64,000 nucleotides of DNA from a virus (Duplodnaviria > Caudoviricetes): positions 32,001-96,000 of the IMG/VR virus record IMGVR_UViG_3300037313_001869; one strand, written 5' to 3'. Each line of letters begins with the position of its first letter. The stretch's first letter is position 1. Shown here piece by piece: positions 1,016 to 59,554 of the stretch. The position numbers were made by a program, and so were the translations under genes. Below the pieces are notes generated by a model. That model did no database searches and had not been told where the DNA came from. It saw nothing but the letters and a program-made list of their open reading frames with translations.

Positions 1016-1530
1016 GCCTTGTCCGTCTTCTCACCGTCCAGGACGCCGCCCATTGGCGGCGTGCTCGGCAAACCAGGGTCCTCACCGGCGGGAGCGGCTC
1101 TCACGTCGACATCGATTGGCTTCCGGCCTACGACTGGATGCGGGGCCAGATGCGCCGCCGGCTCCCGAGCTTCTCGGGAGACTACCCCGTCTGGGCCTGG
1201 CCCGACACGACCCCCGAAGAGGTCCGCTCGCGCGGCGGGTGGGGCAACGGGGGCGAGGAGATGGTCCTTCTCACCTTGGAGGTGCCCGCCTCGCGTGTGC
1301 TCCTCTCGGACTTCCTCGCCTGGCATTCGGTTCTCAACCACACGGCCATCGGCATCGACGATGACCGGGCGACGCCAGCCGAACGCGAGGCGAGCTGGGA
1401 GCGCATCTTCTACCCGGCCAAGGTCGACTGGACCGACCGGGACGTGATCCAGGCGTGCATCGACCGGGTCTACCTGCCCGAGATCGTTTCGGAGACCTAC
1501 TTCGTCGTCGAGCCGGACGAGTCGGTGTAG
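1012..1530 (+). CDS. DUF3841-like protein
   Basis: AYDWMRGQM..YPVWAW and VLLSDFLAWHSVLN motifs; ATGA overlap. Confidence 0.75.
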   Translation: MSLVRLLTVQDAAHWRRARQTRVLTGGSGSHVDIDWLPAYDWMRGQMRRRLPSFSGDYPVWAWPDTTPEEVRSRGGWGNGGEEMVLLTLEVPASRVLLSDFLAWHSVLNHTAIGIDDDRATPAEREASWERIFYPAKVDWTDRDVIQACIDRVYLPEIVSETYFVVEPDESV

Positions 1531-1541
1531 TAGCCGGGGCG

Positions 1542-1748
1542 ATGACCTGCCCCCACTGCGATCAGCCCCTCACCGAAGGCGTGACCCTCTACCACGAAGG
1601 CATTGCCATCGGTCGTGTGCCGTTCTGCGGGGCCTGCGTCGAGAACGCCGGGCCCGAGGCCAAAGGCGAGGTGTGGACGGTCGCCCCCGCCGTCGGCTAC
1701 AGCACGCCGCTTGCAACGGCGTTCGTGTACGCGACGATGAGGAACTAG
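1542..1748 (+). CDS. small CxxC...CxxC zinc-binding protein
   Basis: CPHC/CGAC; CGGTGTA motif 12 nt upstream. Confidence 0.65.
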   Translation: MTCPHCDQPLTEGVTLYHEGIAIGRVPFCGACVENAGPEAKGEVWTVAPAVGYSTPLATAFVYATMRN

Positions 1749-1751
1749 CCT

Positions 1752-2102
1752 ATGGCCTCGCCCATTTTCAACAAGAAGCAGGAGCAACGGGGTCTCGCCA
1801 CCAAGGAGGCGCGGAGGATCAGCCGCACTTCCGACGGGCGGTCGTATGTCCCGGTTTCGGTCGCCACGGCCGAGAACCTGTGGAAGTACGCGACCCTGTG
1901 TGTGGAGAAGAAGGAGCCCTTCTCTCTCCTGAGCAACCTCGGCCCCTGGAACAAGGAAACCGGGACTCCGGCCATCCGGCTCATCCCTCCCGACCAGGTT
2001 CCCGAAGAGGCCGTGCGGCTCGTTCGTGAGGCGTTCGAGGCGATCGGCGCGGAGGTCCTCGAAGGACCTCCGGACCGGTTCGACCGCGAGGACGTGCTCT
2101 AA
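1752..2102 (+). CDS. hypothetical protein with RFDR tag
   Basis: Ends PDRFDREDVL-TAA. Confidence 0.8.
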   Translation: MASPIFNKKQEQRGLATKEARRISRTSDGRSYVPVSVATAENLWKYATLCVEKKEPFSLLSNLGPWNKETGTPAIRLIPPDQVPEEAVRLVREAFEAIGAEVLEGPPDRFDREDVL

Positions 2103-2642
2103 GAGCGCCATCCACTCGATCTTGGCGAACGAGAGGCCGAGCGCGAGGGCCTCGGCCGCCGTGATGACGAGCCCGTCCTTGCCCTCGGCCTTGACCCGGG
2201 AGGGCATGATGGGCTCGCCCGGGTGGAAGGTGAAGACCACCTCCTTGCCGTCGTCCTCGCCGAGGATGGCCACGGTGAAGGGAGCGACCTTGGCTTCGGC
2301 AGGGCGAAGGGCGACGCACGCCTCGACGAAGCCCGTCTTCTTCGGGTCGCGCAGGACCACGGGCGTCTCGGGGGGCAGGTCGGCGAGAGCCGAGAGCCCC
2401 TCGAAGCCCGGAAGCTCGGCCCGGAAAGCCGTGCAACCCTTCATCACGGCCGGGTGCTCGTAGGGGGCCCACGAGGCCGAGAAGAGCGCCGTCTCGATGG
2501 CCGACGGTTCGAGGTCGTAGCCGCTGCCGGCCGCTGCCGGAGAGAGCCGGGAGCGCATGGCAAGGCAGCTCGCGAAGTAGGCCGAGAGGGCCGAGCGGGT
2601 GGTGGAGAAAGCGACGAGAACGCGGGCGGTCGAGTTGGTCAT
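2100..2642 (-). CDS. hypothetical protein (ends at TTA)
   Basis: GAGGGGG RBS and ATG at 2642; in-frame TTA at 2102-2100 coincides with the convergent gene's TAA; code-11 extension would run about 600 nt antisense. Confidence 0.7.
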
Positions 2643-2686
2643 GCCCCCTCGATGCGCGACCCCTCCGGTATCTGACACGGTGTAGA

Positions 2687-3685
2687 ATGCTTCTCGTGAC
2701 CGACCTCCGAAACAAGATCCTGCTCGGTTCGTGCGAAGACCTCATCTGGCAGGTCCCCGACGGGTTTCTGCCGGCGCTCGTCACGGACCCGCCGTATGGA
2801 CTCGGTAACCGAGAGCCCTCGGCCCGCGAGATCGACGCCTACCTCGAAGGAGGGCGGCTGAACCTCGGCGGCGACTTCATGAACAAGAAGTGGGACATTC
2901 CCTCGGTCGCGTTCTGGAGAGAGTGCTACCGGGCCCTCGAAGACGGCGCCTACCTCGTCTCGTTCGGAGGGACCCGAACCTACGATCTCATCGGCGCCGG
3001 GCTTCTCGCGGCGGGCTTTCGGTGGGTCGCGAAGCGATACTGGGTTCAGTCTCAGGGGATGCCGAAGGGCGGGACCATCGGCAAGAAGATCGACCAGAAG
3101 GCCGGCGCTACGCGAAAGGTCGTCGGCCTGAAGAAGCTGAACGAGCGAGACACGAAGACCTACTACCCGAAGGCCGAGGGCGGCTACGGCGGCATGGACC
3201 CGGCGAACCGTCCGGCAAGCATGTTGATCACCGAGCCGGCCACCGAAGAGGCCGAGCTGTGGGAAGGCTGGGGCTCGACGCTCAAGCCCGCGTGGGAGCC
3301 CATCTACGTCGTCTCGAAGGGCGAGCCTCGCCGGCCCCTCGACCTCGATACGTTCCTCTACTGCGCCAAGGCCACGAAGAGCGAGACCACGCTCCGGGGC
3401 GAGATCGAGAACGATCACCCGACCAAAAAGCCGGTCGAGCTGATGCGCTGGCTTGTGCGTGCTGTCGCTCGACCCGGGGACCTCGTGCTCGACCCCTACG
3501 TGGGCTCAGGGTCAACGGCCGAGGCGCTCGTTCACGAGGGCATGGCCTACCTCGGCTTCGAGCGAGACCCGGCCTTTCACAAGATCGCCGACACCCGCGC
3601 AAGCATCGTGCTCGCAGAGCGCCAGGAGTTCGATGGGCATCGAAATGCTTTCGACCTGGCCATGTCCCTCGGAGACGACGAATGA
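2687..3685 (+). CDS. DNA N4-C/N6-A methyltransferase (beta class)
   Basis: TDPPY, HPTKKP, VLDPYVGSGST motifs; true start may be GTG 2696. Confidence 0.9.
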   Translation: MLLVTDLRNKILLGSCEDLIWQVPDGFLPALVTDPPYGLGNREPSAREIDAYLEGGRLNLGGDFMNKKWDIPSVAFWRECYRALEDGAYLVSFGGTRTYDLIGAGLLAAGFRWVAKRYWVQSQGMPKGGTIGKKIDQKAGATRKVVGLKKLNERDTKTYYPKAEGGYGGMDPANRPASMLITEPATEEAELWEGWGSTLKPAWEPIYVVSKGEPRRPLDLDTFLYCAKATKSETTLRGEIENDHPTKKPVELMRWLVRAVARPGDLVLDPYVGSGSTAEALVHEGMAYLGFERDPAFHKIADTRASIVLAERQEFDGHRNAFDLAMSLGDDE

Positions 3686-4452
3686 ACGCAGCCGCTCTCA
3701 TCCTCTCTGACGCCTTCGAGACCCGAGACGAGTGGGAGGTCCTCCTCTCTTCGGTTCTACCGGGGGCACACGTTGTTCTCGTCGAGGAGGGGCTCTTTCT
3801 CCGCTCCCTTCAGGCGAGGCGAGCGGGCTTTCACCTTCGCGACACGATCGCGTGCCTCTACCCGGGCGACCGGTCGAAGCTAGCCTACCTCTTCCGGGCG
3901 CCGATGAGCGAGAAGTCGCTGACGGACAACATCCTGAGGCACGGTACCGGGGGCCTGCACATCGACGCTTGCCGGGTCCAGACGAGCGACAAGCTCGGCG
4001 GAGGGGCCGAGAAGCGCTGCACCTTCGAGGACTCGGAAGGGTGGTCCCGCCCCTGGATGAAGGACCCCGAAGCCCAGGCGGCCTACGCGGCTCGGGCCCA
4101 GGCGGCCGTAGCACGGGCCGAGCAGCTCGGGAGGTGGCCCGCAAACCTGCTCCTCGTCCACGACCCTTCCTGTGGCCCCTCGTGCGCCCCTCTCTGCCCC
4201 GCGGCCCGTATCGGGGTTCAGAGCGGGCGACGGCCGGCCACCCTTACGGGGAGGGCCGACGGACCCCAGGAGAACCCCGCCACGGCCCGCCCCGACGCCT
4301 TCTTCGGCAACCTGAAGGGCGGTATTGGCGTGGTCTACGCCGACGACGGGGATGCGTCGCGGTACTTCCCCCAGTTCCGCAACGAAGAGGAGCTGTTCTC
4401 CTGGCTCGAACGGCTGGTGACGCCCGAGGGCAAAGCGTGCCTTCGCTTGTAA
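3682..4452 (+). CDS. methyltransferase-related protein lacking catalytic motifs
   Basis: GTGGLHIDACRV, GRWPANLL, ASRYF motifs resembling the variable insert of phage N4/N6 methylases. Confidence 0.65.
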   Translation: MNAAALILSDAFETRDEWEVLLSSVLPGAHVVLVEEGLFLRSLQARRAGFHLRDTIACLYPGDRSKLAYLFRAPMSEKSLTDNILRHGTGGLHIDACRVQTSDKLGGGAEKRCTFEDSEGWSRPWMKDPEAQAAYAARAQAAVARAEQLGRWPANLLLVHDPSCGPSCAPLCPAARIGVQSGRRPATLTGRADGPQENPATARPDAFFGNLKGGIGVVYADDGDASRYFPQFRNEEELFSWLERLVTPEGKACLRL

Positions 4453-4457
4453 AACCT

Positions 4458-4464
4458 CGGTGTA
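4458..4464 (+). promoter_or_regulatory. CGGTGTA start-proximal motif (representative of about 31 copies)
   Basis: 9 nt upstream of ATG 4474; full list in findings. Confidence 0.7.
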
Positions 4465-4473
4465 AAGAGGGGC

Positions 4474-4884
4474 ATGACGCTCCCCATTTTGATACAGGCT
4501 TCGGACGGCCAGGTCGACTACCGCGACCGCGACATCAAGGCCCGCCTTCTGCTTCTCATGAGCGTGCCTGTTGGCCGCTACGACGCGAGCGAGGGCGGGA
4601 AGTACAAGAGCCGTTCCCTGGAGAACTACTGGCTTCAGATCGCGGCCTGGTACGTCTTCGGGCTCGGGGTGCTCGACGTGAGCTTCTCGCTCACAGGTAG
4701 CGACTCCCCGCCCGAGGAGCTGAAAAAGGCGATGCCTCGTGTGCTTTTGCCGATCGCCGACTGCTCGGCGGCGACACAGCAGGCGGTCGAGATCATCCGG
4801 GAGCAGTCGGCCCGGTGGTTCGCGGAGGCCGAACCGGTTCTCTCGAAGCTGTCGTTCTTCACGCTGGCGAGCAAGACGCCATGA
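4474..4884 (+). CDS. hypothetical protein
   Basis: CGGTGTA 9 nt upstream; ATGA overlap downstream. Confidence 0.75.
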   Translation: MTLPILIQASDGQVDYRDRDIKARLLLLMSVPVGRYDASEGGKYKSRSLENYWLQIAAWYVFGLGVLDVSFSLTGSDSPPEELKKAMPRVLLPIADCSAATQQAVEIIREQSARWFAEAEPVLSKLSFFTLASKTP

Positions 4885-5570
4885 AGCCGATCATCTTCTG
4901 GCACTCGCCCGAGACCATCCCCGCCGAACTCTACGCGGAGTTCGGCGGCTCGTGCGGCTGTGACGGGGCCCTCGACGACGGCTGCCCGCTCTGCACCAAA
5001 GAGAAGAAGGCCGAGTGGCTCGCCCAGCGGGAGGCAAAGGCCCGGTGGGGGGAGCACGGCCACGCCCGGGACCGGGGAGATCGGGCCTCGCTGCTCAACC
5101 CCCGCTTCATTGTGGGGGAGCTGGACCCGGGCATCAACAACATGCTCGTCCTTGGCGAGTCGAACGTGTCGTGGGAGGGGGCGTTCTTGGATGCAGCCTT
5201 CCGGCAGATGCGTTCGGGAAAGGACGTGCTGCCCCTTCCGATCCGGGCAGGGACCATGAGCCCTGAGGTCGACCTCTGGGTACCCAACGCCTTCACCGAC
5301 GACTGGGAAGAGCTGCGGCCCGCGACACGCATCATCCAGGTCGGTACCCGCGAGGCATTCATAGTCGGTTCGGTCAACGACTACGAAAGCGTCGCCAAGG
5401 TCGCGAGGGTCTCGGCCATCAACCTTTTGCCCCGGCCGGTTCACGCGGACAAGGTGCCCTACGAGCCCTTCCGCTTTCGTGAGCACGCCATGCACGAATG
5501 GCGTTACCTCTGCGCCTACGCCGGGTCCGGGTTTCGGCCGGCCCGCTTCGACAGGGAGCCCCCGCTATGA
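4881..5570 (+). CDS. hypothetical protein with RFDR tag
   Basis: Ends PARFDREPPL. Confidence 0.75.
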   Translation: MKPIIFWHSPETIPAELYAEFGGSCGCDGALDDGCPLCTKEKKAEWLAQREAKARWGEHGHARDRGDRASLLNPRFIVGELDPGINNMLVLGESNVSWEGAFLDAAFRQMRSGKDVLPLPIRAGTMSPEVDLWVPNAFTDDWEELRPATRIIQVGTREAFIVGSVNDYESVAKVARVSAINLLPRPVHADKVPYEPFRFREHAMHEWRYLCAYAGSGFRPARFDREPPL

Positions 5571-5791
5571 CCTCGTTTCAGGACGCTATCCGCCGGGGCC
5601 ATGTCCGCCCAGGCGACGTGGTCACTGTCTCGCACGCCCTGCCTTACACGGCCCGCCGGGTCGTTCTCTCGGGAGTGCAGTTCAAGGAAGCCAACGACGC
5701 CGGGGCGTGGGTCTCGTCCTCCTGGGGCTCCGAGTGGGTGAGTTTTCGTCTCCGGTGGGAGCTTCACGACGAAGCCGCTGCTCTGATCTGA
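5567..5791 (+). CDS. small KOW/SH3-like protein
   Basis: ATGA overlap; VRPGDVVTV. Confidence 0.6.
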   Translation: MTSFQDAIRRGHVRPGDVVTVSHALPYTARRVVLSGVQFKEANDAGAWVSSSWGSEWVSFRLRWELHDEAAALI

Positions 5792-5809
5792 ACTTCCCTT
5801 CCGAAATGC

Positions 5810-7570: not shown

Positions 7571-7616
7571 TACACCAGCCTCGCCGGTTGCCCTGACGAT
7601 TTGCTCGCTCGGTGTA
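7571..7616. promoter_or_regulatory. divergent pair of GGTGTA motifs
   Basis: Minus copy 7571-7577 serves ATG 7558; plus copy 7610-7616 serves ATG 7626. Confidence 0.7.
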
Positions 7617-8585: not shown

Positions 8586-8634
8586 CTCTTCTGTCAGACC
8601 ACAAGTGCTTTTTCGTCCGGTGTACCTGAAACCC

Positions 8635-10281: not shown

Positions 10282-10421
10282 GGTACGCGAGCTATCCTTG
10301 TGGTTCGCGGTGCAAGCGAGGGGCGGCGTGGAACCACGGTCACGCGCCCTGACCCCTACCTTGACACCGGTTGGGCCCAGGGCGCAAGGAGGATCGCTCG
10401 GGCGCGGTGTCTATCGTTCCA

Positions 10422-10988
10422 ATGCCAGACTTCTACCCAGGGGGAATCGTCTTCGAGCGCGGCACGGGTGCGCGGGGGTTCGTCCTCGACTCGATCGACA
10501 GGGACACGAGCAACCCCGAGGCCGAAATGCGGGTTTGCTACACCTCCGGGGACCGGCCGATCTACCGGCACGTTCGGGTCTCGAACTGGGAGATGGCCCC
10601 TCGGTCCCGCTACGACCGGCTCCTCGAACCCGATGGCCCCGATGGGTGCTGGCACGGGGTGCGGCCGAAGTGGTTTCTCTGGCAGGGGCCCCAGGGCTTC
10701 TACCCGATCAACGTCACGTCCGACCTCCCTTTGCAGAAGGTGGCTGGTAAGGGGGACTTCTGGGCCTTCCGGGCCCCGCGTGGCTTCTTTCGGGTGAAGA
10801 CCCTGTGCAAGAAGTCGGTCTACCGGATAGGCTACGTCCGTCTTATCGAGCCCAACTACTACGCCGTCTGGCCCGTGGGGCCTCAGGCTACCCCTGGGGC
10901 AAAATGGAAGAGCTGGGTAACCCGGGCGCTCTCGCGCGTCGGTGTAAAGACGGTACCCTATGCCTACCACCTGGAATCTGCACTTTGA
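10422..10988 (+). CDS. hypothetical protein with internal RYDR motif
   Basis: CGGTGTC 10 nt upstream; PRSRYDRLL after the first module. Confidence 0.7.
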   Translation: MPDFYPGGIVFERGTGARGFVLDSIDRDTSNPEAEMRVCYTSGDRPIYRHVRVSNWEMAPRSRYDRLLEPDGPDGCWHGVRPKWFLWQGPQGFYPINVTSDLPLQKVAGKGDFWAFRAPRGFFRVKTLCKKSVYRIGYVRLIEPNYYAVWPVGPQATPGAKWKSWVTRALSRVGVKTVPYAYHLESAL

Positions 10989-13187: not shown

Positions 13188-13217
13188 GGCCCGGTACTAC
13201 ACCGGGCCGAAGGGTCG

Positions 13218-17458: not shown

Positions 17459-17524
17459 GGTTTCCTCTGGACGATCGAGCGGACCGTCTTTTTCCAAGAA
17501 TGCGAAGCCGTCTCCGTTCTGACG

Positions 17525-19526: not shown

Positions 19527-19555
19527 TTCGTTTCTCCTCTCGCAGCCTAGACGTT

Positions 19556-19903
19556 TCAGGTCTTCTCTTTTTTCCCGCGACGGTGCCGAGGAACGTACGG
19601 GCCCCCAGGCAAGAGCTTGGCGAGCACCTCCGGGGCAAGCTCAACGCTGCCCGGGCGCCGTTCGAGGTTGAGCTTTCCCTCGGCCGCCGTGCAGCGCAGG
19701 CAGTCGACCGGATCGGCCAGCCCTTCGGCCGAAACGAGCGACTTGACGCCGCAGAGGGTCCGGGTCTCGCCCAGCACGAGCGAGCGGTTGCGGGTCGGGA
19801 CGACGGCCAGGTGGATGACCTCACCCCCGACCGTCGAGACCTTGGCGAGGTAGCCCTTGGCTTCGGTGTTTTCGCGATCGAGGGGTTTAGGAGAGGGGGT
19901 CAT
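19556..19903 (-). CDS. hypothetical protein (H..C..CxxC)
   Basis: CGGTGTC motif 12 nt upstream. Confidence 0.7.
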   Translation of the reverse strand: MTPSPKPLDRENTEAKGYLAKVSTVGGEVIHLAVVPTRNRSLVLGETRTLCGVKSLVSAEGLADPVDCLRCTAAEGKLNLERRPGSVELAPEVLAKLLPGGPYVPRHRRGKKEKT

Positions 19904-19926
19904 GGCCCCCTCTCAGACACCGCGCC

Positions 19927-20775: not shown

Positions 20776-20817
20776 GGGCGCTAGACGATCGAGAGCGGGC
20801 GGATTTTCCGAAAAAGC

Positions 20818-21284: not shown

Positions 21285-21333
21285 GGTTACCTCCAAGGAC
21301 GGTTGAGAGGCCGTCGATTTTCCGGCAAGATAA

Positions 21334-21867: not shown

Positions 21868-21977
21868 GGCCTTGGAGTACACCTCTCGTGAAGAGCTTGC
21901 AGAAAGGTTCGTGAGTAGGTATGGTCCGAACCGACGCTCGACTGGCCCAGACTGGCCGTCTCCGTCCTGAAAAAACC

Positions 21978-22897: not shown

Positions 22898-23362
22898 TAA
22901 GACACCGCCTTCGTCGTCGTCCTCTTCACCCTCGGCGCTGGCTTCGCCCTCTTCGCCCTCACTTCCGCTGTTCTCGCCGGCCATGTTGAGATCGTCGAGG
23001 TCTTGCAGAAGTTCGAGAACGTGTCCGACGCCCTGCTCGTCTCGCCACATGCCCACCCACCCGACGAGGGGCACGTCGCCGCAGTCGCACTCACACATGA
23101 CGTTCTCGTCGAGGGCGAACTCGGTCTCGGCCCGGACGAAGAGAAAGGTACGGACGAGGTTGCCGTGCTTGCCGTCCTGGCAAGGCAGCATGGCCCAGAG
23201 AACGATTTTGCCCGGCTTCGACTTGTCGTCGATGTTGAAGATTTGAGCCCCGAAGGGCAGCTCCATGATCACGCGCTGGGTATCGAGGCCGACTTCGATC
23301 CCCTTGATGATGTAGCGGGGAGGGGCGAACGGGAGGTGCTCGATCGAGTGGTTGTCGCTCAC
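22898..23362 (-). CDS. hypothetical phage protein with acidic tail (ends at TTA)
   Basis: Acidic tail, then in-frame TTA at 22900-22898, 7 nt before next start. Confidence 0.7.
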
Positions 23363-23476
23363 GGATGGGCGCTCCTTGGTCTACCGAGAGCCCGGGCAAA
23401 GGAGCATTCTCGATGGGCGAGGGTCGGGCTTGCTGGCAGGCGGACCCGCGAAGATCCGGTGTAGTACGCGATCACC

Positions 23477-24415
23477 ATGCCCCGTCCGACCAACATGCCC
23501 TGCTGGGCTGTCGAAGGCGCTACCATCGAGCCGGCCTCGAACCAGGCTCAACTTCGGAACGACCACGGCCGGATCGTCTCGGCCAAACTCTATGCCGCCG
23601 AGCATCCTGGGATGGCCCTCGTGATCGACGCGGTTACCGACGAAAACCTCATCGTCCGCGTGGGCTCAAAGACCTTCACGGTGGCTTACGACACCGCCTT
23701 CTCGACGAGCTGGCGGCTCGTGGGGACCGTGCCCGAGCGGGTCCAGCCCCCGAGCTGGCTTCGCACCGGGATGGCCATTCGCTACCAGGGGGCGGCCGAG
23801 GGGCCCGCTGTCTTGCACAACGTGGGCGAGATTCGCTTGCGGGGCACGTTCCGTAACCGCTTCGGGGTCGAGCGGATCACCCGGCAGTACGTCGAGGTGA
23901 TCAACGCCGACATCGCTGGCAGTCTGCGGGCCCCTCTGACGGCCGATTTCGCGGTCAACTGGGGCCCCTGCGTCGGAGACGGTACCGCCCCGGCCCCTGC
24001 CTGGCTCCAGGAGGGCTCGTACGTGCGGCCGAAGGACAACGACGGCCAGCCGCTCAACACCTACTCGTTCCTGGTCACCGAGGTGGCGACCACGTTCTTC
24101 CGGGCGCAGCCGGTCTACAACCACGGCGTACTCGGTCCGGCCATTCAGTTCCCCATGGGGACGGCCGAGGATGCTTGGGTGCTCGCTCCCGACGACCCGA
24201 AGACGCGCCGCGACTACAAGCCTGGCATGGTCCTGCGTAGCCGGCGGACCGGGGAACTCGTCGAGATCAAGACCATCGACCCCGGCACGGGCGCCTTTAC
24301 CGTGGGCAGTCTCCGCCAGCAAATCCGTACACTTACTCCTGGGGAAGGGGAGTTCGTCCTTCAGGAGGACCAACCGGTGGAGAACGTGCCCGACCGCTTC
24401 GGGAGGATCGAGTAG
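23477..24415 (+). CDS. multi-module KOW/SH3-like protein with RFGR tag
   Basis: Repeated P-x-W-L-x-x-G modules; ends PDRFGRIE. Confidence 0.8.
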   Translation: MPRPTNMPCWAVEGATIEPASNQAQLRNDHGRIVSAKLYAAEHPGMALVIDAVTDENLIVRVGSKTFTVAYDTAFSTSWRLVGTVPERVQPPSWLRTGMAIRYQGAAEGPAVLHNVGEIRLRGTFRNRFGVERITRQYVEVINADIAGSLRAPLTADFAVNWGPCVGDGTAPAPAWLQEGSYVRPKDNDGQPLNTYSFLVTEVATTFFRAQPVYNHGVLGPAIQFPMGTAEDAWVLAPDDPKTRRDYKPGMVLRSRRTGELVEIKTIDPGTGAFTVGSLRQQIRTLTPGEGEFVLQEDQPVENVPDRFGRIE

Positions 24416-25572
24416 TGCCCCCGCTTGGGTCCTGGGTTTATGAAGGGGTGTATGCCATCTCCCCCGAGGGCGCCGTTCGGTGCATCGTCAACGTCCGAGA
24501 CGACCGGTTCACCTCGGCGCCTCCGCTGACGTTCAGCTACGACCGTCGAACGCACCCGATGCTGGAGGCGGCCCGCTGGACGCCGCTCACCGCTTTCGAG
24601 GCCGAGGTCATTCGGGGCCTGTCATTTGGGCGGCATGTTCACTACAGCAACATGCCCCAAGGGGTGGGAGCCACCTTCGATCCGGTCGCTCGGATCGAGG
24701 GGGAGCTTCCGCCCTGGTACGTCGTCGGTGGCCGGTGCAGGGTGCGCGGCGACAGCCTGATGACCTACACCCTCTTCGATGCCGGTCGATCCCAGATGGC
24801 CTTTCGAGAGAACGCTGGGCCCGGGCGACTCTTTCAGTGCTCGGCGCCGGGGGCCATCCGGCTGTTCGAGGCGGTACCTGGCCCCTGGGAACGTCCCGCT
24901 ACCGAGCCCCTCTACGCGATCTCTTGGCAGAGGACTCCGCCCCCGCCCGACCCTCCGCCTGCAAACGAGCTTCTCCGGGTTGCCGACGAGGTCACCCATG
25001 TGACGAGGAAGATCCGCGTGGCGTTTGGGGTCGGGGACGACGAGAAAGAGGGGGTCACGTTGGAAGCCGAAACCGTAGCCCCGCATCCGAACTCGCCCTT
25101 TTTCAAGGGGGCGATTGTGCTAAACGACAAGGGCTACGCCTACAAGGTCGAAAACGTCGAGGTCGAGAATGGCACGCCTTCGGCCATTCTCATGTGGGAC
25201 CTCGACCGGTCTTCACTGCCCCATGCCCGGCCCTACTCGCGTCGCTACCCAATCCCTGTCCCGCTCACCTGGGCTGCGGACATGCCCGTTCCCGCGGGGC
25301 TGACCGAGGAAGACTGCTCGCTCTTCGACGAGTTGAAGACGGGGCAGGTTCTCGTGGACCTCGACTCGCGGCGTATTCTCGTGGTCGTCGGATTCCTGGT
25401 GACGGGTGACGAGAACCGGAAGACGCATTTTCTGATCGAGGAGGCAACGAAGGGCCCCGGAGAATCCAATCCCTTTCAGGTGGCCTCTGAGCCGGTTCGT
25501 TCCCGGTGGGTCGCACTTGGGCCCCATCGCAAGCCCCCGTCTCGGTTCGACCGCCTTGGGGAAGACCTCTGA
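24415..25572 (+). CDS. multi-module KOW/SH3-like protein with RFDR tag
   Basis: LPPWYVVGG, FFKGAIV, LKTGQVL modules; ends PSRFDRLGEDL. Confidence 0.8.
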   Translation: MPPLGSWVYEGVYAISPEGAVRCIVNVRDDRFTSAPPLTFSYDRRTHPMLEAARWTPLTAFEAEVIRGLSFGRHVHYSNMPQGVGATFDPVARIEGELPPWYVVGGRCRVRGDSLMTYTLFDAGRSQMAFRENAGPGRLFQCSAPGAIRLFEAVPGPWERPATEPLYAISWQRTPPPPDPPPANELLRVADEVTHVTRKIRVAFGVGDDEKEGVTLEAETVAPHPNSPFFKGAIVLNDKGYAYKVENVEVENGTPSAILMWDLDRSSLPHARPYSRRYPIPVPLTWAADMPVPAGLTEEDCSLFDELKTGQVLVDLDSRRILVVVGFLVTGDENRKTHFLIEEATKGPGESNPFQVASEPVRSRWVALGPHRKPPSRFDRLGEDL

Positions 25573-25955: not shown

Positions 25956-25981
25956 CCGCTTTTGGTGTAGAGAGCTGGGCT

Positions 25982-28970: not shown

Positions 28971-29029
28971 CGGGTTCCTGAGCGCAGGGGGGAAGGTCTA
29001 GGTACCCAGGCCCGGTGTATAAGAAGCCT

Positions 29030-29413: not shown

Positions 29414-29426
29414 CTCCGGTGTAGAA

Positions 29427-29545
29427 GAGCGGGACGGCCCGCGAGTAAGCCCTCCGGGTTAGGGACCACTGTGCTCACCTCTGTGGATGGTCCCCTGGGG
29501 GTCGGCCGGCTGGCCCGGAGGGCTTTTTCGCGGGCCGTCTTGTTT
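29427..29545 (+). ncRNA. putative structured non-coding RNA
   Basis: Follows CGGTGTA (29417-29423); long stem with G-U pairs plus inner GGGACCA/TGGTCCC hairpin; no credible ORF. Confidence 0.55.
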
Positions 29546-30486: not shown

Positions 30487-30529
30487 GTTCACCTGAACTG
30501 CATGAGTGCTTTCGGTGTAAGCACCTCTC

Positions 30530-32904: not shown

Positions 32905-33453
32905 TCAGACGCGCTCGAAACGGGTGGGTGCGTCTGACGTGGTGGGCTCGCTTGGGGCCCCGCTGCGGAGGGTCTCCGGAGGGAGAACCTCGAAGAAGTC
33001 AAAGACCGATGGGTCGAGCGCGAGAACGCGGCTCTCCGAGAGGACCGGGTAGACCGGGGGCACGACGCTCTCGACCGTAAAGAGGCGAGCCTCTCGGTTG
33101 ATATGAACGACGCGCATCCGGCAGCCGGTGTGGTCCTGCAACACGTCCCCCACGTACACCGGCACGTCTCCGGGGACGTGGGCAGGGTAGGGGTCCGGTT
33201 CGGTAGGTCCCCACATTGCAAGGAACACCTCCCAAGGGTACTCGACCGTCTCGGGCATTCCGTCCTCGTCCATCACCACCAGCTCGATCCGGGTGATCGG
33301 CGTAGCCCCGAGATGGGCTACTTCGTGGATCTGGACGATGCGCGCGTACCGTTCTTCGCCAGGGACCCGGGACCTCACGAGCACGTTGGGGTTCGCCCAA
33401 AGGCTCGGGTCCGGGTCGGTCGAAGGTTCCGGAGGGTCGGAGGGATCGGGCAT
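32905..33453 (-). CDS. two-module SH3-like protein with RFER tag
   Basis: Ends APTRFERV. Confidence 0.75.
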   Translation of the reverse strand: MPDPSDPPEPSTDPDPSLWANPNVLVRSRVPGEERYARIVQIHEVAHLGATPITRIELVVMDEDGMPETVEYPWEVFLAMWGPTEPDPYPAHVPGDVPVYVGDVLQDHTGCRMRVVHINREARLFTVESVVPPVYPVLSESRVLALDPSVFDFFEVLPPETLRSGAPSEPTTSDAPTRFERV

Positions 33454-33512
33454 CGCGCACCCAGATCCCCGGCTTTGGAAGTTTAGCGACGCCCGGGCGG
33501 TGTTATAGCGGG

Positions 33513-34204: not shown

Positions 34205-34223
34205 GCCGGTGTAGGGGCTTCGC

Positions 34224-38820: not shown

Positions 38821-38865
38821 GGCGGCAGGCTTCTCTACACCGAACCGGTGTAGGACCCCCACGGG

Positions 38866-42141: not shown

Positions 42142-42159
42142 GCGGTGTACCCTCTGGGC

Positions 42160-43096: not shown

Positions 43097-43120
43097 ACAG
43101 GCCCTACACCGAAGCTCGGC

Positions 43121-44509: not shown

Positions 44510-44627
44510 ACCCACCCCCTACACCACCCCAGACAATGTCAGGGCGGACAATCAAAATCCCTAGGCCGCTCAGAGATCGCGGTGTAGATCAGCGCCGGAC
44601 GCAACAAGACCCCGCAAGGAGCCTCCC

Positions 44628-47076: not shown

Positions 47077-47098
47077 GGCCGGTGTAGACCCCGATCAC

Positions 47099-47670: not shown

Positions 47671-48225
47671 ATGAGCAAGCCCATCGTCCGCCCAGGAAAT
47701 CCCATGTTCACGGCCACTACCCCGGGCACTGTGAGCCTGATGAGCCTTCTTGGCCCCGGGCTACGGTCCGGCAACATCGTCCTCTCCCTCGACCAGACCC
47801 GGAACCTCAACCGGATCTACGGCTTCGACGAGGAGAAGCCGAACCAGAGGCCCCCGCGCCCTAAGCCTCCGGAGCCCCTCCCTCCGAACGCTTCGTGGGA
47901 GGCAAAGCGCGACTACAACCGCGCCCTCGAAGACCACAAGAGCGCCGTCGAGAGCTGGGAGAAGTGGACCGACCCACGCTCCTTTCTGCAAGCGGGCGCC
48001 GACCGGAACATGATCCGCTACGCCGAGGCCGACGGGATGCGCCTTGTCGCCTGGATCGCCAAGTACGTCGAGGCCGGAGAAGACCCTCTGAAGACCCTCA
48101 TCCAGATGGCCTCCGACGCGGGTTTCGACGTGGACCCCTCGGACATCGAGTGGGCGAACGGCGAAGAGGGCGAAGAAGACGACGAGGAGGCTCCCGAGGG
48201 GACGCCGGCCGAGGCGACGGTGTAG
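47671..48225 (+). CDS. hypothetical protein
   Basis: AAGGAG RBS; acidic tail. Confidence 0.8.
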   Translation: MSKPIVRPGNPMFTATTPGTVSLMSLLGPGLRSGNIVLSLDQTRNLNRIYGFDEEKPNQRPPRPKPPEPLPPNASWEAKRDYNRALEDHKSAVESWEKWTDPRSFLQAGADRNMIRYAEADGMRLVAWIAKYVEAGEDPLKTLIQMASDAGFDVDPSDIEWANGEEGEEDDEEAPEGTPAEATV

Positions 48226-50136: not shown

Positions 50137-50364
50137 GTGACCCTCGCGGACGAGATCGAGCACGACTGGCGCTTCACCCTCCTTCGGCCGTTCCCGAAGC
50201 CGCACAGGGAGGAGCGTGACCCGAACGCCCCTCCGAAGTCGATGATGGAGCAGGTTTTCGAGGACCTGTCGAGGAAGATCGCGGCGGAGCTAGACGAGGA
50301 GATCCTGGGGTCGATTCCGGAGCTTCCCGTCTACCCCTCCCGCTTCGAGCGCCTCGCCGCCTAA
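50137..50364 (+). CDS. small protein with RFER tag
   Basis: Ends YPSRFERLAA-TAA. Confidence 0.7.
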   Translation: MTLADEIEHDWRFTLLRPFPKPHREERDPNAPPKSMMEQVFEDLSRKIAAELDEEILGSIPELPVYPSRFERLAA

Positions 50365-51822: not shown

Positions 51823-52575
51823 TAAGACACCGAGAGCGAGCGCGTCGATTCGGCCATAGAGCGGGTCGAGGCCGTTCATCTCGTTTCGCACGAGGTGGCC
51901 GAAGTCCTCGTCCGGGATGCCCGTCGACTCGGCTTCCGAGGCGTGGCTTCTCCAGCTCTCGTCGTTCTTCTTCGGAGGAGGGGCGAGCACGCGCCAGGTC
52001 TGTCCGCCCTCGTCCTCGATGGCCCCCATCTCGTTCCGGAAGCGCATGTCGGGGATCACGATACCCTTGGGGGTCTCGTACCCGCCTCGATCGTACGGCC
52101 ACTGAAGGAGTCCCTGGGTGTGGTGGTAGCCGTACTTCCCCCCAGGCGAGAGAACCTTGCGGGCGATGTTGAAGGCGTAGTTGACCCAGGTATCCTCGAA
52201 GCAGGTTCGGCCAAATTCCGTTCCCAACTTTTGCAAAGCTTCGCGCGGCGTGAGGTAGGTCATGCGAAGATGGCACTTGGGGCACGCCAGGCCCTCGTAC
52301 TCCAGATGTTCGAGCACCATGTGCTCCGGGGCCCTCTTCACCCCCGCCTGGGCGCACCAGGGGCACACCTTCCACTTCGGGTAGCGCAGGTCGGGCACGC
52401 TCCGAAGCTCCGACGGCCCCCAGAGCTGCTCTTCGCTGAAGTCGTAGACCTCGCGGCAGTAGCGCTTCAGGGGGTCAGCGAAGGCGATCTTGGCGAAGCC
52501 GTGGTGGTTGACGAGCCGGTCGGCAATCGTGTCCTTGCCCGACCCGGCGGGCCCCGAGATTCCTACGATCCTCAT
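51823..52575 (-). CDS. deoxynucleoside monophosphate kinase with Zn-finger insert (ends at TTA)
   Basis: GPAGSGKDT, FADPLK, TPREALQKLGTE, PDMRFRNE, HASE. Confidence 0.88.
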
Positions 52576-53901: not shown

Positions 53902-53977
53902 GGGGTTGCCTCCTAGACACCGTCAGGGCAACGAAAGGCCAACCGTCCCTCCCGATGCCTTTCGGAGACCCCCGCCC

Positions 53978-54523: not shown

Positions 54524-56209
54524 GTCGAGCCCCGGGGGCAGCGCCACGGGCGTTTCGTCCCCGCCCTCGATGGCGGCCATGTCCTCGGGCACCCGCCCTT
54601 CCTTCACGAGCCGGGCGACCATCTTCGCGAGCTGAGCCCGCCGGGTATCGTCGAGCGATCCGCCCTTGGTCGGGTTCGGAAGGCGCGTGGTCAGGTAGAG
54701 GGCCTCGACGAGCGTGATCTGGGAAGGGGCTTCGGAAAGGAGCTTCTTCGCCGCGGGCCCGATCCCGTAGATGTTCGGCCCGAACTCGACCACGTTCAGG
54801 TACGTTTCGAGGATCTGCTCTTTCGTCAGGCACGATTCGAGCGCGAAGGTGAGAAACGCCTCCTGAGCTTTGCGCCCGAGCGTCCGCTCCCTCCGAAGCC
54901 AGAGATTCTTCGCGAGCTGCATCGTGAGGGTCGATCCCCCACGCACTACCTTGCCCGCCTTCACGTTCTCGATGAGCGAGTTCTCGTAGGCTTGCCGGAT
55001 AAAACCCCGATGGACGAAGAAGCCCGGGTCTTCCGTATTCGTGAGCGCCATGGCCATCGTCGGGCTCACGTCCCCCAAGGGTACCCACTCGGCCGTTGCG
55101 GGCCCGGTCGTACGCTCGAAGGGCTGCCCTCCCTTGTCGTAGGCCACGTAGGTGAAGCGCTTGCGGAGCGTCTGGGCGAAGCCCAAGGGGGCACAGGCGG
55201 CCTTGCACGTCATGTCGAGCGAGAGCTTGGGCTTTTCCCCGGCGTCGACCTTCGCCCGGATGTCGCCCGAGAGCTGGAGGCTCGCAAAGGGGGCCGGGGC
55301 CTTCAGCTCGTCCGGGAGAAGCCCGAGCCAGTCCTGGCACGACCCGGCGGCCTCCACCGTCTTCGCCTTGGCGTCAACCGCAAGCCGGACCGAAGCCCGC
55401 TCGACCCAGAGCTTGCCTGCCGGATCGAAGGTCACCCGCAGATCGTGGGACGTGAGAGATTCGGAAGAAAGCGCCGGACTCTCTACTGTGGCCCTCTTCG
55501 CCACGGCAACGAGCTGGCCCCCCTCCTCAGTAACCGTTGCCTCCTCGGCCAAGGCAGCGAAGGGGTAGGGCACCTTCGGGCTCGGGGGGCGGTTCTCGAT
55601 CGAGAGTTGCCCCACGGTGGCCTTCCGCTCCTTCGGCAGAACCCGTACGTCCGCGGAGGAGACCATCGGTACCCCAGGCCCGATGGCCAGCGCCGTCGTG
55701 AGCACGACCTCGGTGCCGTCCGTCCGGGCCCAGCCTTCGCCGAAGAGAACCGTCTGGTAGCCGTGCTCGGTGAGCGGCGGATAGAGGACCTTGGCCCCCT
55801 CGAACGAGACCCGGCCCTCTTCGTAGGCGACGCCCTGAAAGCGCACCTCGGCGCCGTCCTTGCGGACCGTGACGGTCATTGCCCGCGCTGTCACCTGGTA
55901 GCCGCTGGCCGTGGTGCCTGAGCCCGCCTTCCTTGCCCCAGGGTCGACCACGAACGAGCCCCCCTCGGCCACAACGTGCTTGTCCCAGGAGCAGAAGACG
56001 CTCTCGGCCCGGCCCTGGACCCAGGGCTTTGTCACCGACACGCCGCGGAGGGTAAGCCCCTTCTGCCCGACCGAGAGCGCCTCGACCTGGAAGTCAGGCC
56101 CCAGATTTTTTCGCACGTAGGCGAGGGATATCGCGGGGGCGGCGACATAGAAGACGACAAGCGACCCGACGAGCAGGCCGACGACATAAAACAGGCGTTT
56201 TGCGTTCAT
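54521..56209 (-). CDS. peptidoglycan glycosyltransferase (GT51, monofunctional type)
   Basis: TEDPGFFVHRG, RGGSTLTMQLAKNL, RKAQE, YLNVVEFG; N-terminal TM; no transpeptidase domain. Confidence 0.9.
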   Translation of the reverse strand: MNAKRLFYVVGLLVGSLVVFYVAAPAISLAYVRKNLGPDFQVEALSVGQKGLTLRGVSVTKPWVQGRAESVFCSWDKHVVAEGGSFVVDPGARKAGSGTTASGYQVTARAMTVTVRKDGAEVRFQGVAYEEGRVSFEGAKVLYPPLTEHGYQTVLFGEGWARTDGTEVVLTTALAIGPGVPMVSSADVRVLPKERKATVGQLSIENRPPSPKVPYPFAALAEEATVTEEGGQLVAVAKRATVESPALSSESLTSHDLRVTFDPAGKLWVERASVRLAVDAKAKTVEAAGSCQDWLGLLPDELKAPAPFASLQLSGDIRAKVDAGEKPKLSLDMTCKAACAPLGFAQTLRKRFTYVAYDKGGQPFERTTGPATAEWVPLGDVSPTMAMALTNTEDPGFFVHRGFIRQAYENSLIENVKAGKVVRGGSTLTMQLAKNLWLRRERTLGRKAQEAFLTFALESCLTKEQILETYLNVVEFGPNIYGIGPAAKKLLSEAPSQITLVEALYLTTRLPNPTKGGSLDDTRRAQLAKMVARLVKEGRVPEDMAAIEGGDETPVALPPGLD

Positions 56210-56221
56210 CGCCCCCCTGGT

Positions 56222-56276
56222 TACACCGCCCCGCGCCCGGCCCGTACTTTTCCTGTGCATCGTGAGAGCCGGTGTA
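56222..56276. promoter_or_regulatory. divergent pair of CGGTGTA motifs
   Basis: Minus copy 56222-56228 serves GT51; plus copy 56270-56276 serves rSAM. Confidence 0.7.
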
Positions 56277-56289
56277 AGAGACTGGCACG

Positions 56290-57492
56290 ATGCGCTCCAT
56301 GGAACTCCGCCTCAACGACCAGCTTCTCTACCATTCGACCTTCGACCCAGCGACGGGCAACCTCGTCCGCGCGGTCGAGATCGGCGAGAGGTACGATTCG
56401 CCGTGGGATGTGCATGGCAAGTCCGACGAGGACAAGGCGTGGAAGGCACGCTACGGCTACCGCCACGGGCCGTTCTCGCCCTCGCCGGAGCTGGTGGACA
56501 TCGCCATCACCGACAAATGCTACATGGGCTGCACCTACTGCTACCAGGACAGCCGCCCGAAGCGCGACCACGCCCCGAAGGAGCTGGTCGAGAAGATGAT
56601 CCAAGGCTTCGATTACGCCCCTTACCAGGTCGCGATCGGCGGCGGCGAGCCGACGCTTCACCCTGATCTGCCCTACATCCTGCGGCGGGCACGGGAGCTG
56701 GGCTCGGTACCCAACTACACGACCGCGGGCGATCAGATCCGCGAGGACGTGATCGAGGCGACCAACGAGGTCTGCGGCGGCGTCGCCATGACCTACCACA
56801 GCTTCAAGGGCATCGACTGGTTCGTCTCGCACTACCAGGCCCTTCGCGACCGGCTGAAGGTCCAGCTCAACGTCCACCTCATCGCTGACAAGGACGTGGC
56901 CACGAACCTGCTCGCGCTCTGTTCCCGGTACAAGGAACTCGGGCGGCTCCGGCTCGTCCTGCTCGCCTACTACCCTGACGTGGGCCGGGCGTCGATGGAC
57001 CGGCTCCTCGCCAAGCGTACGTACATGAAGGACCTGCCCGAGGCGATCAAGTTCGCCCGCGTCTCGGGCTTCGACATTGCCTTCAGCGAGGGGCTCCTTC
57101 CCTTCTTCCTCTCGCGCCCCGGTCTCGGGGTCGAGACGAAGTTCGCGATGGCCGTCGAGGGCAAGTTCTCGTGCTACTTCGACACGCGCGGCCGGATCGC
57201 GGTATCGAGCTTCGACCACCGGGGCCTCAACTGGGAGCGCGACGACGAGGTTCGCCCTACGGTCTTCACCCACAGCTCGCAGAGCATGTGGGACAAACTC
57301 TGGGGGAGCCACACCAGCCCTCGGGGCGACGCCTGCTACGACTGCGCCCAGCGGCCGAGGTGCGCGACGCCCCACGACTTCCACTACTTCGTCTGCGCCT
57401 TCGCCCAGCACAACCAGACGCCGCTCCGCGAGCCCGACGTGACCCCCGAAACCGCCCACGACCGCGTCCTCAAGGACGACGAGGTGATCTGA
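56290..57492 (+). CDS. radical SAM protein
   Basis: CYMGCTYC, GGGEP; C-terminal Cys cluster. Confidence 0.92.
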   Translation: MRSMELRLNDQLLYHSTFDPATGNLVRAVEIGERYDSPWDVHGKSDEDKAWKARYGYRHGPFSPSPELVDIAITDKCYMGCTYCYQDSRPKRDHAPKELVEKMIQGFDYAPYQVAIGGGEPTLHPDLPYILRRARELGSVPNYTTAGDQIREDVIEATNEVCGGVAMTYHSFKGIDWFVSHYQALRDRLKVQLNVHLIADKDVATNLLALCSRYKELGRLRLVLLAYYPDVGRASMDRLLAKRTYMKDLPEAIKFARVSGFDIAFSEGLLPFFLSRPGLGVETKFAMAVEGKFSCYFDTRGRIAVSSFDHRGLNWERDDEVRPTVFTHSSQSMWDKLWGSHTSPRGDACYDCAQRPRCATPHDFHYFVCAFAQHNQTPLREPDVTPETAHDRVLKDDEVI

Positions 57493-57881
57493 TGCCTCTC
57501 CTTCTCTCCATCAACACGAGCTTCATCACCAACAGCAGCTCGGCCGTTCACCACTTCCCGCGCGAGCTTCTGAACGACCCGTCCATCCGGGCCTTCATCG
57601 CGGCGTTCGAGCTGGATGGCGGCGTCATCGGCTCGGACATGTGGTCGCGTGACCTCTGCACGACCGTGGCCATGACCCCCGAGCAAAAACAGGAGGTCCT
57701 CTCCAAGCTCGTCACGGGTTCGGAGTATTGCAGCCCTCCGTCCATCCAGACCGACGACGACACGATCCTCATCATCTACGGTGACGAGCACACGAGCGTG
57801 GCCTCGTCGCTCGCGCGGCTGATGGAGTCAGTGGCCGAGAAGCTGGGCATCAAGCTCCAGGGCAGCCAGGAGTACAACTTA
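57492..57881 (+). CDS. NSSS-motif protein (ends at TTA)
   Basis: TGATG overlap with rSAM; SFITNSSS; TTA at 57879 coincides with convergent TAA. Confidence 0.7.
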
Positions 57882-58199
57882 CTCTTCGGGGTCTTCGTCG
57901 TAGAAGCCCCCGCCCCGGTCTTCCCCTTCGAGCACGAGGTAGCCTGGATGCAGGCCCTCGTGGACCTCACGGTGGCATCGGCAGCAAAGGAGCACCGTGC
58001 GGTCCAGCTCGACCTTGACCACGTCCCACTTCTGCCGGGCTGAGATATTGAAGTCCTTCTGCCGAGGGTCGGGGTGGTGAAAGTCAAATCCGGACAGGGA
58101 CTTGTCGTAGCCGCAAATCTGACAGCGACCGCCCTTGTATGCGACGGCTCGTGCCCGAAGCTCCCGCCGCTTTCTCGCTCGGTCCCATCGGTCGGCCAT
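57879..58199 (-). CDS. HNH endonuclease
   Basis: GGRCQICGY...FHH.DP..K...LLCCRCHREVH. Confidence 0.88.
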   Translation of the reverse strand: MADRWDRARKRRELRARAVAYKGGRCQICGYDKSLSGFDFHHPDPRQKDFNISARQKWDVVKVELDRTVLLCCRCHREVHEGLHPGYLVLEGEDRGGGFYDEDPEE

Positions 58200-58245
58200 T
58201 GCCCAAGAGCCCGTCAAAAGCAGGACTATCAGCGACTACCCTACC

Positions 58246-58731
58246 ATGAACCGGGTCCATCTCCCCCTGATCCCGCGCCAGCCGGACGGCCTTTCTGGGC
58301 TGCGGTCGCTCGATAGCCCGTGCGAGCTGTTTCTCCCTGGCGAGCCCATGCCCGAAGGCGAGTGTTTGGGGGACGGACACTACCTCTGCAAGGAGTGCGA
58401 CAACCTCACCATTGCCATGGAAGACAAGCCCTGGTCTCGGTTCACCCGGCTTCTGCTCTACGACCTCGACGGCTACTTGCGCCTGCCCCCGCCTCCGGGA
58501 CCCCGGGCCGAGCCCACGACCATGTGGACCGTGGCCTATGCGTCCGACGTGTGTGGGGGTATGAAGCTTCAGACCTACCGGACGAGGGACGAGGCCCAAG
58601 TCTTCGCCGAGGTCCTTTTCCGCGGGGGAGTGCAGGACGTGATCGTTCGGCAGCTTCCCTCGGACACCTTCGACGCCAAGAACAACGAGCTGCCCGTCTA
58701 CGGGCGGTTCAAGCCCAGGGACATCCTATGA
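58246..58731 (+). CDS. hypothetical protein
   Basis: C..DGHYLCKEC; ends YGRFKPRDIL. Confidence 0.7.
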   Translation: MNRVHLPLIPRQPDGLSGLRSLDSPCELFLPGEPMPEGECLGDGHYLCKECDNLTIAMEDKPWSRFTRLLLYDLDGYLRLPPPPGPRAEPTTMWTVAYASDVCGGMKLQTYRTRDEAQVFAEVLFRGGVQDVIVRQLPSDTFDAKNNELPVYGRFKPRDIL

Positions 58732-59108
58732 TCTGGCTAGTGTTTCTCGGTTTTCTAGTGACCAGCCTCGTCGCCTACCTCGGGTGGAGGCTCTACCGGG
58801 TCGAGGACGCCCTCGCCGAAGCCACCTCGCGGCTCTCGGCCCTCGAAGGCGAACCGGACAAGGCAGGCTCGTACCGAGACGCAGCCCCCAGGTCGTCGGC
58901 CCCCGCTCCGGCGCCTACGCCCGCTCCTACCCCCGGGCGGCAACCCCTATCGGGTAGGCCGTCCCACTGCCCGGCGTGTGGCGCCATGATCGCTTCTTTC
59001 GACACCTCCCTCTGCAAGGGATGCAGCGAGTACCGGGGTAAACCGCACCTGCACTTCCGGTGCTCCTGCGGCTATTTTGACCTGTACCGGACGGTCCAGG
59101 CGATCTGA
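58728..59108 (+). CDS. membrane-anchored zinc-finger protein
   Basis: N-terminal TM; CPACG...HLHFRCSCG. Confidence 0.7.
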   Translation: MIWLVFLGFLVTSLVAYLGWRLYRVEDALAEATSRLSALEGEPDKAGSYRDAAPRSSAPAPAPTPAPTPGRQPLSGRPSHCPACGAMIASFDTSLCKGCSEYRGKPHLHFRCSCGYFDLYRTVQAI

Positions 59109-59181
59109 GCCACGAAAGACTAGACGGGGAAGTTGGCCCCGACTACCCTGGTGGGTTCTGCTAGCGCCTAGGAGGTAGCTC

Positions 59182-59448
59182 GTGCGGAAAAAGCTGGTCT
59201 TGCAGGATACCTTTCGGGTTCTTGAAGCGGGCCCGTGGGACGCCGATAGTTTCGGTCCGGTGCGCGTTGCGCTCTACCAGACCCGGGGCGATGCTTTTTT
59301 TCCCTCCCGTATGGTCGTGTCAGTGACACAGCCGAAAGGCGGGGAGCTGTTTCGTTTCGACGCATCGACCTACCAGTTCGAGGGGGGTACGTTGCGGGTC
59401 TTCTGTGACAAGGCCGTCTCGCGCTGGGTCTTTCGTACGGTCCAGTAG
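59182..59448 (+). CDS. hypothetical protein
   Basis: AGGAGGT RBS before GTG. Confidence 0.65.
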   Translation: MRKKLVLQDTFRVLEAGPWDADSFGPVRVALYQTRGDAFFPSRMVVSVTQPKGGELFRFDASTYQFEGGTLRVFCDKAVSRWVFRTVQ

Positions 59449-59489
59449 CCTCTCCGGGTAGCCCCGGATCGCTCGGTAATCCTTCGATC

Positions 59490-59525
59490 GAACCCCTGAG
59501 GGAAACACCCTTCCCTCAGGGGTTC
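59490..59525. repeat. perfect 15-bp inverted repeat upstream of dam
   Basis: GAACCCCTGAGGGAA-ACACCC-TTCCCTCAGGGGTTC. Confidence 0.75.
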
Positions 59526-59554
59526 ACCCTGCGATCCGGTGTCTTGGAGAGAAG

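Follow-up and report, generated by a model that had tools for sequence, protein, structure and literature searches.

What is the function of the short word YGGTGT(A/C), where Y is a pyrimidine, that stands just before so many start codons in a stretch of IMG/VR virus record IMGVR_UViG_3300037313_001869? The stretch, referred to here as the window, is 64,000 nucleotides (nt) long and spans bases 32001-96000 of the record, which is one sequence of 435,218 bases bounded by direct terminal repeats. This is a complete jumbo phage genome of 65% GC (here G000), and its gene content includes a family A DNA polymerase, baseplate, terminase, a capsid protein and 44 tRNAs. The word is very probably a promoter. 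It is likely to be read by the RNA polymerase core of the host together with a phage-encoded sigma factor resembling those of the extracytoplasmic function (ECF) group, for which the product of gene g377 is the leading candidate, giving near-leaderless mRNAs.

The original prediction, made from the letters of the window, had listed 31 copies of the motif. All are present, and are set out below together with the hairpin that follows one of them; minus-strand sites were listed by the low end of the 7-mer.

1523..1529, plus: motif, 12 nt before ATG 1542; its TAG doubles as the upstream stop
2678..2684, plus: motif, 11 nt before GTG 2696 of a divergent gene
4458..4464, plus: motif, 9 nt before ATG 4474
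7571..7577, minus: motif, T variant, 12 nt before ATG 7558; paired divergently with 7610
7610..7616, plus: motif, 9 nt before ATG 7626
8618..8624, plus: motif, 10 nt before ATG 8635
10405..10411, plus: motif, C variant, 10 nt before ATG 10422
10940..10946, plus: motif, 13 nt before ATG 10960
13198..13204, minus: motif, 10 nt before the AAA ATPase gene 13187-11892; also at the G001 ortholog
19916..19922, minus: motif, C variant, 12 nt before ATG 19903
21878..21884, minus: motif with A in first place (AGGTGTA), 10 nt before ATG 21867
22901..22907, minus: motif, C variant, 10 nt before GTG 22890
23457..23463, plus: motif, 13 nt before ATG 23477
25963..25969, plus: motif, T variant, 12 nt before ATG 25982 (AAA ATPase)
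29013..29019, plus: motif, 10 nt before ATG 29030; also at the G001 and G004 orthologs
29417..29423, plus: motif with no gene downstream, followed by a long hairpin
29432..29539, plus: rod-like hairpin, possible non-coding RNA (ncRNA), beginning 8 nt past the motif; the helix can be lengthened to 29427, in part through G-U pairs
30513..30519, plus: motif, 10 nt before GTG 30530
33498..33504, plus: weak variant ending in T (CGGTGTT), 8 nt before GTG 33513
34207..34213, plus: motif, 10 nt before ATG 34224
38836..38842, minus: motif, 15 nt before ATG 38820
42143..42149, plus: motif, 10 nt before ATG 42160
43105..43111, minus: motif, 8 nt before ATG 43096; shortest spacer class
44520..44526, minus: motif, T variant, 10 nt before ATG 44509; divergent from 44580
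44580..44586, plus: leadered case, motif 41 nt before ATG 44628 of a vWA gene with its own Shine-Dalgarno (SD) sequence
47080..47086, plus: motif, 12 nt before ATG 47099, directly after a terminator-like hairpin and T run
48218..48224, plus: motif, 9 nt before ATG 48234; its TAG is the upstream stop
51826..51832, minus: motif, C variant, 10 nt before ATG 51815
53916..53922, minus: motif, C variant, 14 nt before ATG 53901, with an SD
56222..56228, minus: motif, 12 nt before ATG 56209; paired divergently with 56270
56270..56276, plus: motif, 13 nt before ATG 56290 of a radical SAM gene
59537..59543, plus: motif, C variant, 11 nt before ATG 59555 of a Dam-like methylase gene; also at the G001 ortholog

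The proposed spacing holds for 29 of the 31 sites, which lie 8-15 nt 5' of a called gene start with a mode of 10, and the exceptions that had been named (44580, 29417 and, with its GTG start, 2678) are as described. CGGTGTA occurs 26 times in the window, compared with 3.07 +/- 1.88 in 100 dinucleotide shuffles, none of which reached 26. Across the genome, GGTGTA is the dominant hexamer in the 30 nt 5' of starts (84 copies where 4.2 are expected, log10 p about -76); CGTGTA has no positional peak. Counted with no gene model at all, YGGTGTA-N9/10-ATG is found 52 times and the reversed pattern 0 times. A literature search on the motif and on leaderless promoters of jumbo or huge phages, in which subscription papers were poorly covered, found no description.

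Genome-wide figures refer to 634 gene calls made with a hexamer model that is blind to the motif and reads TTA as a stop; for motif genes, a start up to 120 nt from the model start was permitted, and the model-free counts peak at the same place. On this basis GGTGT(A/C) lies 8-18 nt before the start of 122 genes, about one in five. The spacer is 8 nt in 5 of these, 9 in 24 and 10 in 44, followed by a tail, so that the distribution is cut off sharply on its lower side, at 8-9 nt. The base ahead of the motif is C in 89 genes, T in 20, G in 10 and A in 3, and upstream of this Y there is no information, no position within 39 nt exceeding 0.09 bit; a conserved -35 box is therefore not seen. In gaps between co-directional genes 81 copies are in the sense orientation and 6 antisense. 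The motif precedes 39 of 106 divergent genes (37%) as opposed to 5 of 162 overlapping ones (3%), and some divergent pairs carry two motifs within gaps of 7-44 nt. Many of the genes served are small and variable (median 142 amino acids). The structural region is motif-poor, with 3 of 104 genes as compared with 119 of 530 elsewhere. Transcription usually starts at a purine preceded by a pyrimidine at -1, and a pyrimidine stands just before the start codon in 84% of genes with spacers of 8-10 nt against 61% of the others in this genome, with the same direction in three relatives, which lends mild support. There is no enrichment at tRNAs, with one clear case among the 44 of this genome. A tRNA-like gene (genome 331929-332021, minus) has a CUA anticodon, possibly that of an amber suppressor, and the motif 19 nt upstream.

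The motif is shared by a clade of relatives. Among those with terminases at 57-64%, the top upstream hexamer is the same and peaks at 9-10 nt, with 120 of 599 genes in G001, 30 of 219 in G003 and 33 of 497 in G004; the outgroup G005 has 1 of 385. Seven further records (G002 and G006-G011) contain 8-72 copies where a control gives 0-4; the outgroups G005, G012 and G013 contain 1-4, like the control. Genes of G001 tend to have the motif where their orthologs in this genome do (odds ratio 14, p=2e-8). A T four bases past the motif is found in 80% of 20 cases in G003 only, the values being 16% in G000, 22% in G001 and 12% in G004.

This one-box element is accompanied by a second, two-box class of ECF type, GGAAA-N17-CGT(C/T), with 43 copies genome-wide at fixed spacing, mostly 7-11 nt before an ATG. 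Its copies cluster at genome 320-400 kb, and a single gene carries both classes. Four lie in the window:

17470-17495, minus: two-box promoter class
19550-19575, minus: two-box promoter class
20784-20809, minus: two-box promoter class
21298-21323, minus: two-box promoter class

Since the two-box class is equally close to the ATG, near-leaderless geometry would be a general habit of this phage. In place of the one-box motif, structural operons are marked by a T-rich word, whose leaders are longer and which often comes with an SD; enriched here, this word shows no clear enrichment in relatives. The two-box class differs in each of the four phages compared, being GTTAA-N17/18-CGTA in G004, CTTAA-N17/18-CGTA in G001 and AACGTT-N14-CGTA in G003. 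The GC content of the clade spans 51-65%, which suggests different hosts. As the one-box class stays fixed while the two-box class alongside it varies, we infer that the former is read by a conserved phage factor.

Which factor might this be? The original prediction had proposed a search for a phage sigma factor or RNA polymerase, and candidates for the former were found, as an adjacent pair of ECF-like genes, together with a third sigma-like candidate:

Genome 306081-307073, minus: g377, ECF-like sigma candidate
Genome 303958-305187, minus: g374, second ECF-like sigma, adjoining g377
Genome 237296-237862, minus: strongest sigma region 4 match

No multisubunit polymerase was detected: PF00562 and PF00623 (beta and beta-prime) have no match in the complete genome, although very divergent enzymes could escape, and no plausible gene of that genome contains the catalytic DxDGD. 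Host RNA polymerase should therefore be expected. Both g377 and g374 are present in 10 of 10 relatives; neither was found in G005 or in the more distant 485-kb phage LR745208.1, nor g377 in G012. The third candidate, a conserved protein, was rejected as the one-box reader, as it has tandem region 4 helix-turn-helix (HTH) motifs and no region 2 match. Every clade member searched encodes it within the head-packaging cluster; LR745208 has a counterpart, and the protein is a candidate late regulator. An extra, conventional-looking sigma factor of G001 (L064:9968-10531, plus; TIGR02937, E 6e-28), FliA/WhiG-like by eye, is absent from the other genomes searched.

In g377 the motifs of regions 2.2 and 2.4 are split by an insert of about 120 residues, HNH-like in several orthologs and nearly absent in G003, which occupies the loop responsible for specificity at -11. 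This interruption of region 2 is why Pfam Sigma70_r2 has no match in this genome; TIGR02937 finds g377 weakly, two short-insert orthologs pass the Sigma70_r2 cut-off, and atlas matches are to sigma clusters at 0.95. Residues 11-205 of the model align with the sigma-2 domains of SigB (Z 7.6, rmsd 2.7 over 80 residues), AlgU (7.1) and T4 gp55 (6.8), with SigC and RpoS also within Z 6.8-7.6. A single-sequence search of the PDB with the G003 ortholog gave nothing. With moderate scores, g377 appears to carry the sigma region 2 fold and motifs. CARD-like matches of its C-terminus are low-confidence helical bundles and were disregarded. Among orthologs, identity is 0.61 in region 2.3-2.4 of g377, the best of the stretches compared, and 0.24, the worst, in its C-terminal HTH, a remnant with no Pfam region 4 match; a conserved -10-reading helix with a decayed HTH fits an invariant -10 and no -35. 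The gene is itself preceded by a variant of the two-box class, here and in G004, so that its product would be made early and act next. In G003, the extra T past the motif and a g377 ortholog without the insert may be a case of co-variation. This circumstantial evidence leans towards g377 as the reader of the motif.

The best-surviving alternative, that the promoter is read instead by g374, by a host alternative sigma factor or by g377 with a further activator, is unlikely. In its favor, g374 is equally co-occurrent and matches ECF sigma-2 profiles more clearly (SigR, E 1.6e-7; SigH; SigL), sigmaL exemplifies a host ECF sigma with a similar -10, and LR745208 has a related word with neither gene. 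However, the -10-reading helix of g374 is variable (identity 0.27) where the motif is invariant, and in this genome a late-like T-rich word lies upstream of the gene. The N-terminal extension of g374 is conserved, its region 2.4 variable. Conceivably g374 is packaged in the virion and reads the phage-specific two-box class. A host reader is harder to reconcile with a motif that stays fixed while the two-box class varies and the GC span suggests different hosts.

Several points weigh against a promoter read by g377. Many copies of the motif lie inside genes, and as six bases carry little information, selectivity would need a further source. Because spacers range up to 18 nt, one gene in three would not be strictly leaderless but have a short leader, and terminator-like hairpins precede only 5 of 26 long-gap motif genes, compared with 13 of 137 others. 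The g377 model is weak (pLDDT 64, pTM 0.35), Foldseek returned nothing significant for it or for that of g374, and Z values under 8 may reflect a mere common helical arrangement. Co-occurrence cannot tell g377 from g374, and since the phages are related, the ten cases do not count as independent. Finally, LR745208 has a looser, GTGTAA-like upstream word, with no g377 ortholog detected, and a sigma-like open reading frame of its own (74150-74719). That phage also has 54 complete sigma28/FliA-type promoters, TAAA-N15-RCCGATAG, before small genes; none occur in the other five genomes.

A second alternative, judged very unlikely, places the signal in the RNA, either as an element of translation initiation to which the ribosome or a phage protein binds, or as a processing site that trims transcripts to a leaderless form. 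It draws on the near-fixed distance to start codons and on mutual exclusion with the SD: the original observation that the motif often lacks one is borne out by strong SDs in 5 of 122 motif genes against 106 of 512 others (p=2e-6). Overlapping, coupled genes might likewise do without such a signal. However, the SD depends on distance. In four genomes it accompanies 8 of 216 motifs within 11 nt of the start and 13 of 33 that are 25-70 nt away (p=4e-8), a switch that favors a promoter and that an initiation signal would not predict. The possibility of pairing with 16S rRNA, also raised at the outset, is disfavored: against a standard anti-SD tail, which may differ from that of the host, the motif forms 4 bp (-5.6 kcal/mol, compared with -9.2 for AGGAGG), 13-14 nt from the start in the SD register, where real SDs of this phage are mostly at 5-7. 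An A before the motif, which would lengthen the pairing, is the rarest base there. Moreover, the close divergent pairs leave little space for other promoters, the clearly promoter-like two-box class keeps the same distance to the ATG, and copies precede the hairpin and the tRNA-like gene with no open reading frame. The argument of the original prediction that the copy before a putative ncRNA favors a promoter stands only in part. The 108-nt rod that follows the orphan copy at 29417 is real and very stable (z -7.5), but carries little weight alone, having no Rfam family and no counterpart found in relatives, and its helix can reach upstream of the predicted +1, which makes the helix start a weaker marker of +1. 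Neither ARAGORN nor Rfam finds RNA genes in the window.

The last alternative is that the motif is a by-product of gene ends (a stop preceded by a Val codon) or marks recombination or cassette junctions, in the manner of an integron core site. This might account for the many small variable genes and for 22 of the 122 copies, whose TA with the next base forms the stop codon of the gene upstream (7 of these copies are on genes with a shared C-terminal tag), but is extremely unlikely and largely refuted, as the other 100 copies are not explained by such overlap, 39 are at divergent genes that have no upstream stop, only 2 lie in 3.5 kb of convergent gaps, and the motif persists at core genes (helicase, AAA ATPases, methylase) of phages whose proteins are 32-56% identical and in relatives that lack the tag.

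The tag, RF[DE]R plus 0-9 residues, forms the C-terminus of 67 of the 634 proteins, and 67 of all 79 occurrences of RF[DE]R are C-terminal. By BLASTP the tailed proteins are mostly unrelated outside the tail, which looks like an address tag. Examples in the window are genes 1752-2102, 4881-5570, 24415-25572 and 50137-50364 on the plus strand and 32905-33453 on the minus strand; there are none in G001, G003 and LR745208, and 4 in G004. Gene ends are also where TTA gathers. Reading this rare codon as a stop (71 genes terminate on it, with 52 in-frame uses) raises coding coverage from 87% to 90% in this genome and lowers it in four relatives, and the behavior is not seen in G001, G003, G004 or G005.

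A phage-specific promoter making near-leaderless mRNAs, as originally proposed, is thus supported by orientation, gene context, the confinement of the SD to long leaders, conservation in the clade together with a sigma pair, and a match to the -10 elements of ECF sigmas and of phiEco32 gp36, by analogy with which the start site would be placed. The motif would be a -10-only promoter for non-structural, probably middle-phase genes, read by host core and a phage ECF-like sigma, most likely g377. By analogy with gp36 and sigmaL, its register would be G-14 G-13 T-12 G-11 T-10 A/C-9, with G-11 the first melted, flipped base. A gp36-style register would put +1 nine bases past the motif end, which corresponds to the shortest spacer (8), and a sigma70-style register would put it at the modal spacer (10). 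Transcription would therefore start 8-10 nt past the motif, at the start codon or no more than about 2 nt from it in modal genes, with leaders of 0-2 nt either way and of up to about 10 nt for spacers of 11-18. Such messages would be translated leaderless or nearly so, with no need of a ribosome-binding site, and genes farther from the motif retain a normal SD. A more speculative scheme, unlikely in its entirety, is a three-class sigma program on host polymerase, in which a phage-specific early two-box class, possibly through virion-delivered, fast-evolving g374, switches on g377, a sigma of a new kind with an HNH-derived DNA-binding insert, captured by its specificity loop, in place of region 4, and a fifth of mRNAs are made leaderless from a promoter of six bases. 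In that event these mRNAs could escape a shut-off of SD-led host translation.

If correct, these proposals would mean that in a whole clade of huge phages, all uncultured, as many as a fifth of the genes are expressed, one by one, from a minimal promoter, through a sigma family undescribed in the papers searched. This would provide a test case for how a sigma factor manages with no -35 box and with its specificity loop carrying a large insert. Sigma and promoter might also serve as an orthogonal pair, and start codons in such genomes could be fixed by a practical rule. To the original prediction the analysis adds the SD switch with distance, the contrast of fixed and variable promoter classes, and a reason to prefer g377.

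The closest known systems differ from this one in instructive ways. At phiEco32 middle/late promoters, gp36, acting with gp79 and the host core, recognizes AATGTA centered at -11.5 (-14A -13A -12T -11G), where base pairing ends at -12T and the single strand begins at -11G, and needs sequence-specific -35 contacts at -37G and -34A (PMC12276001). The likeness lies in the TGTA core, if the predicted register holds, in the proposed use of a phage sigma on host core with no phage polymerase, and in probably following an earlier promoter class. In contrast, the motif here has GG rather than AA at -14/-13, with a pyrimidine ahead, has no conserved -35, would place the start codon at about +1 and does not serve structural operons; nor was homology to gp36 detected, hhalign against the single sequence giving a probability of 0.2% for g377 and 6% for g374. 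The Mycobacterium tuberculosis sigmaL consensus is T-12 G-11 N C/A-9 A G (PMC6372665). Its T-12 G-11 N-10 C/A-9 is matched exactly, including the A/C alternative, as are the G at -13 and the purine-rich next bases; here, though, -14 is G rather than C and there is no -35 box at 16-18 nt, although the two-box class of the phage has one. Compared with ECF sigmas, the candidate g377 has a decayed region 4 and a long insert. Late promoters of T4 consist of a single -10 box read by gp55, with no -35. The present system resembles them in its single box and in a sigma-2-dominated candidate factor, but differs in sequence, in serving non-structural genes and in its near-leaderless geometry. Promoters of the phiKZ/AR9 type are read by phage polymerases, of which no beta or beta-prime subunits were found here. 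In Actinobacteria and Deinococcus, leaderless promoters have TANNNT directly 5' of the start codon; the short fixed distance and absence of an SD are alike, whereas the last T is conserved only in G003 and the invariant GGTG is foreign to the housekeeping consensus. The probable promoter would work much as phiEco32 middle or T4 late promoters do, with a -10 box recognized by a phage sigma on host core, but is placed in neither class: no homology to gp36 was detected, no -35 element is conserved, the -14/-13 bases are different and structural genes are avoided.

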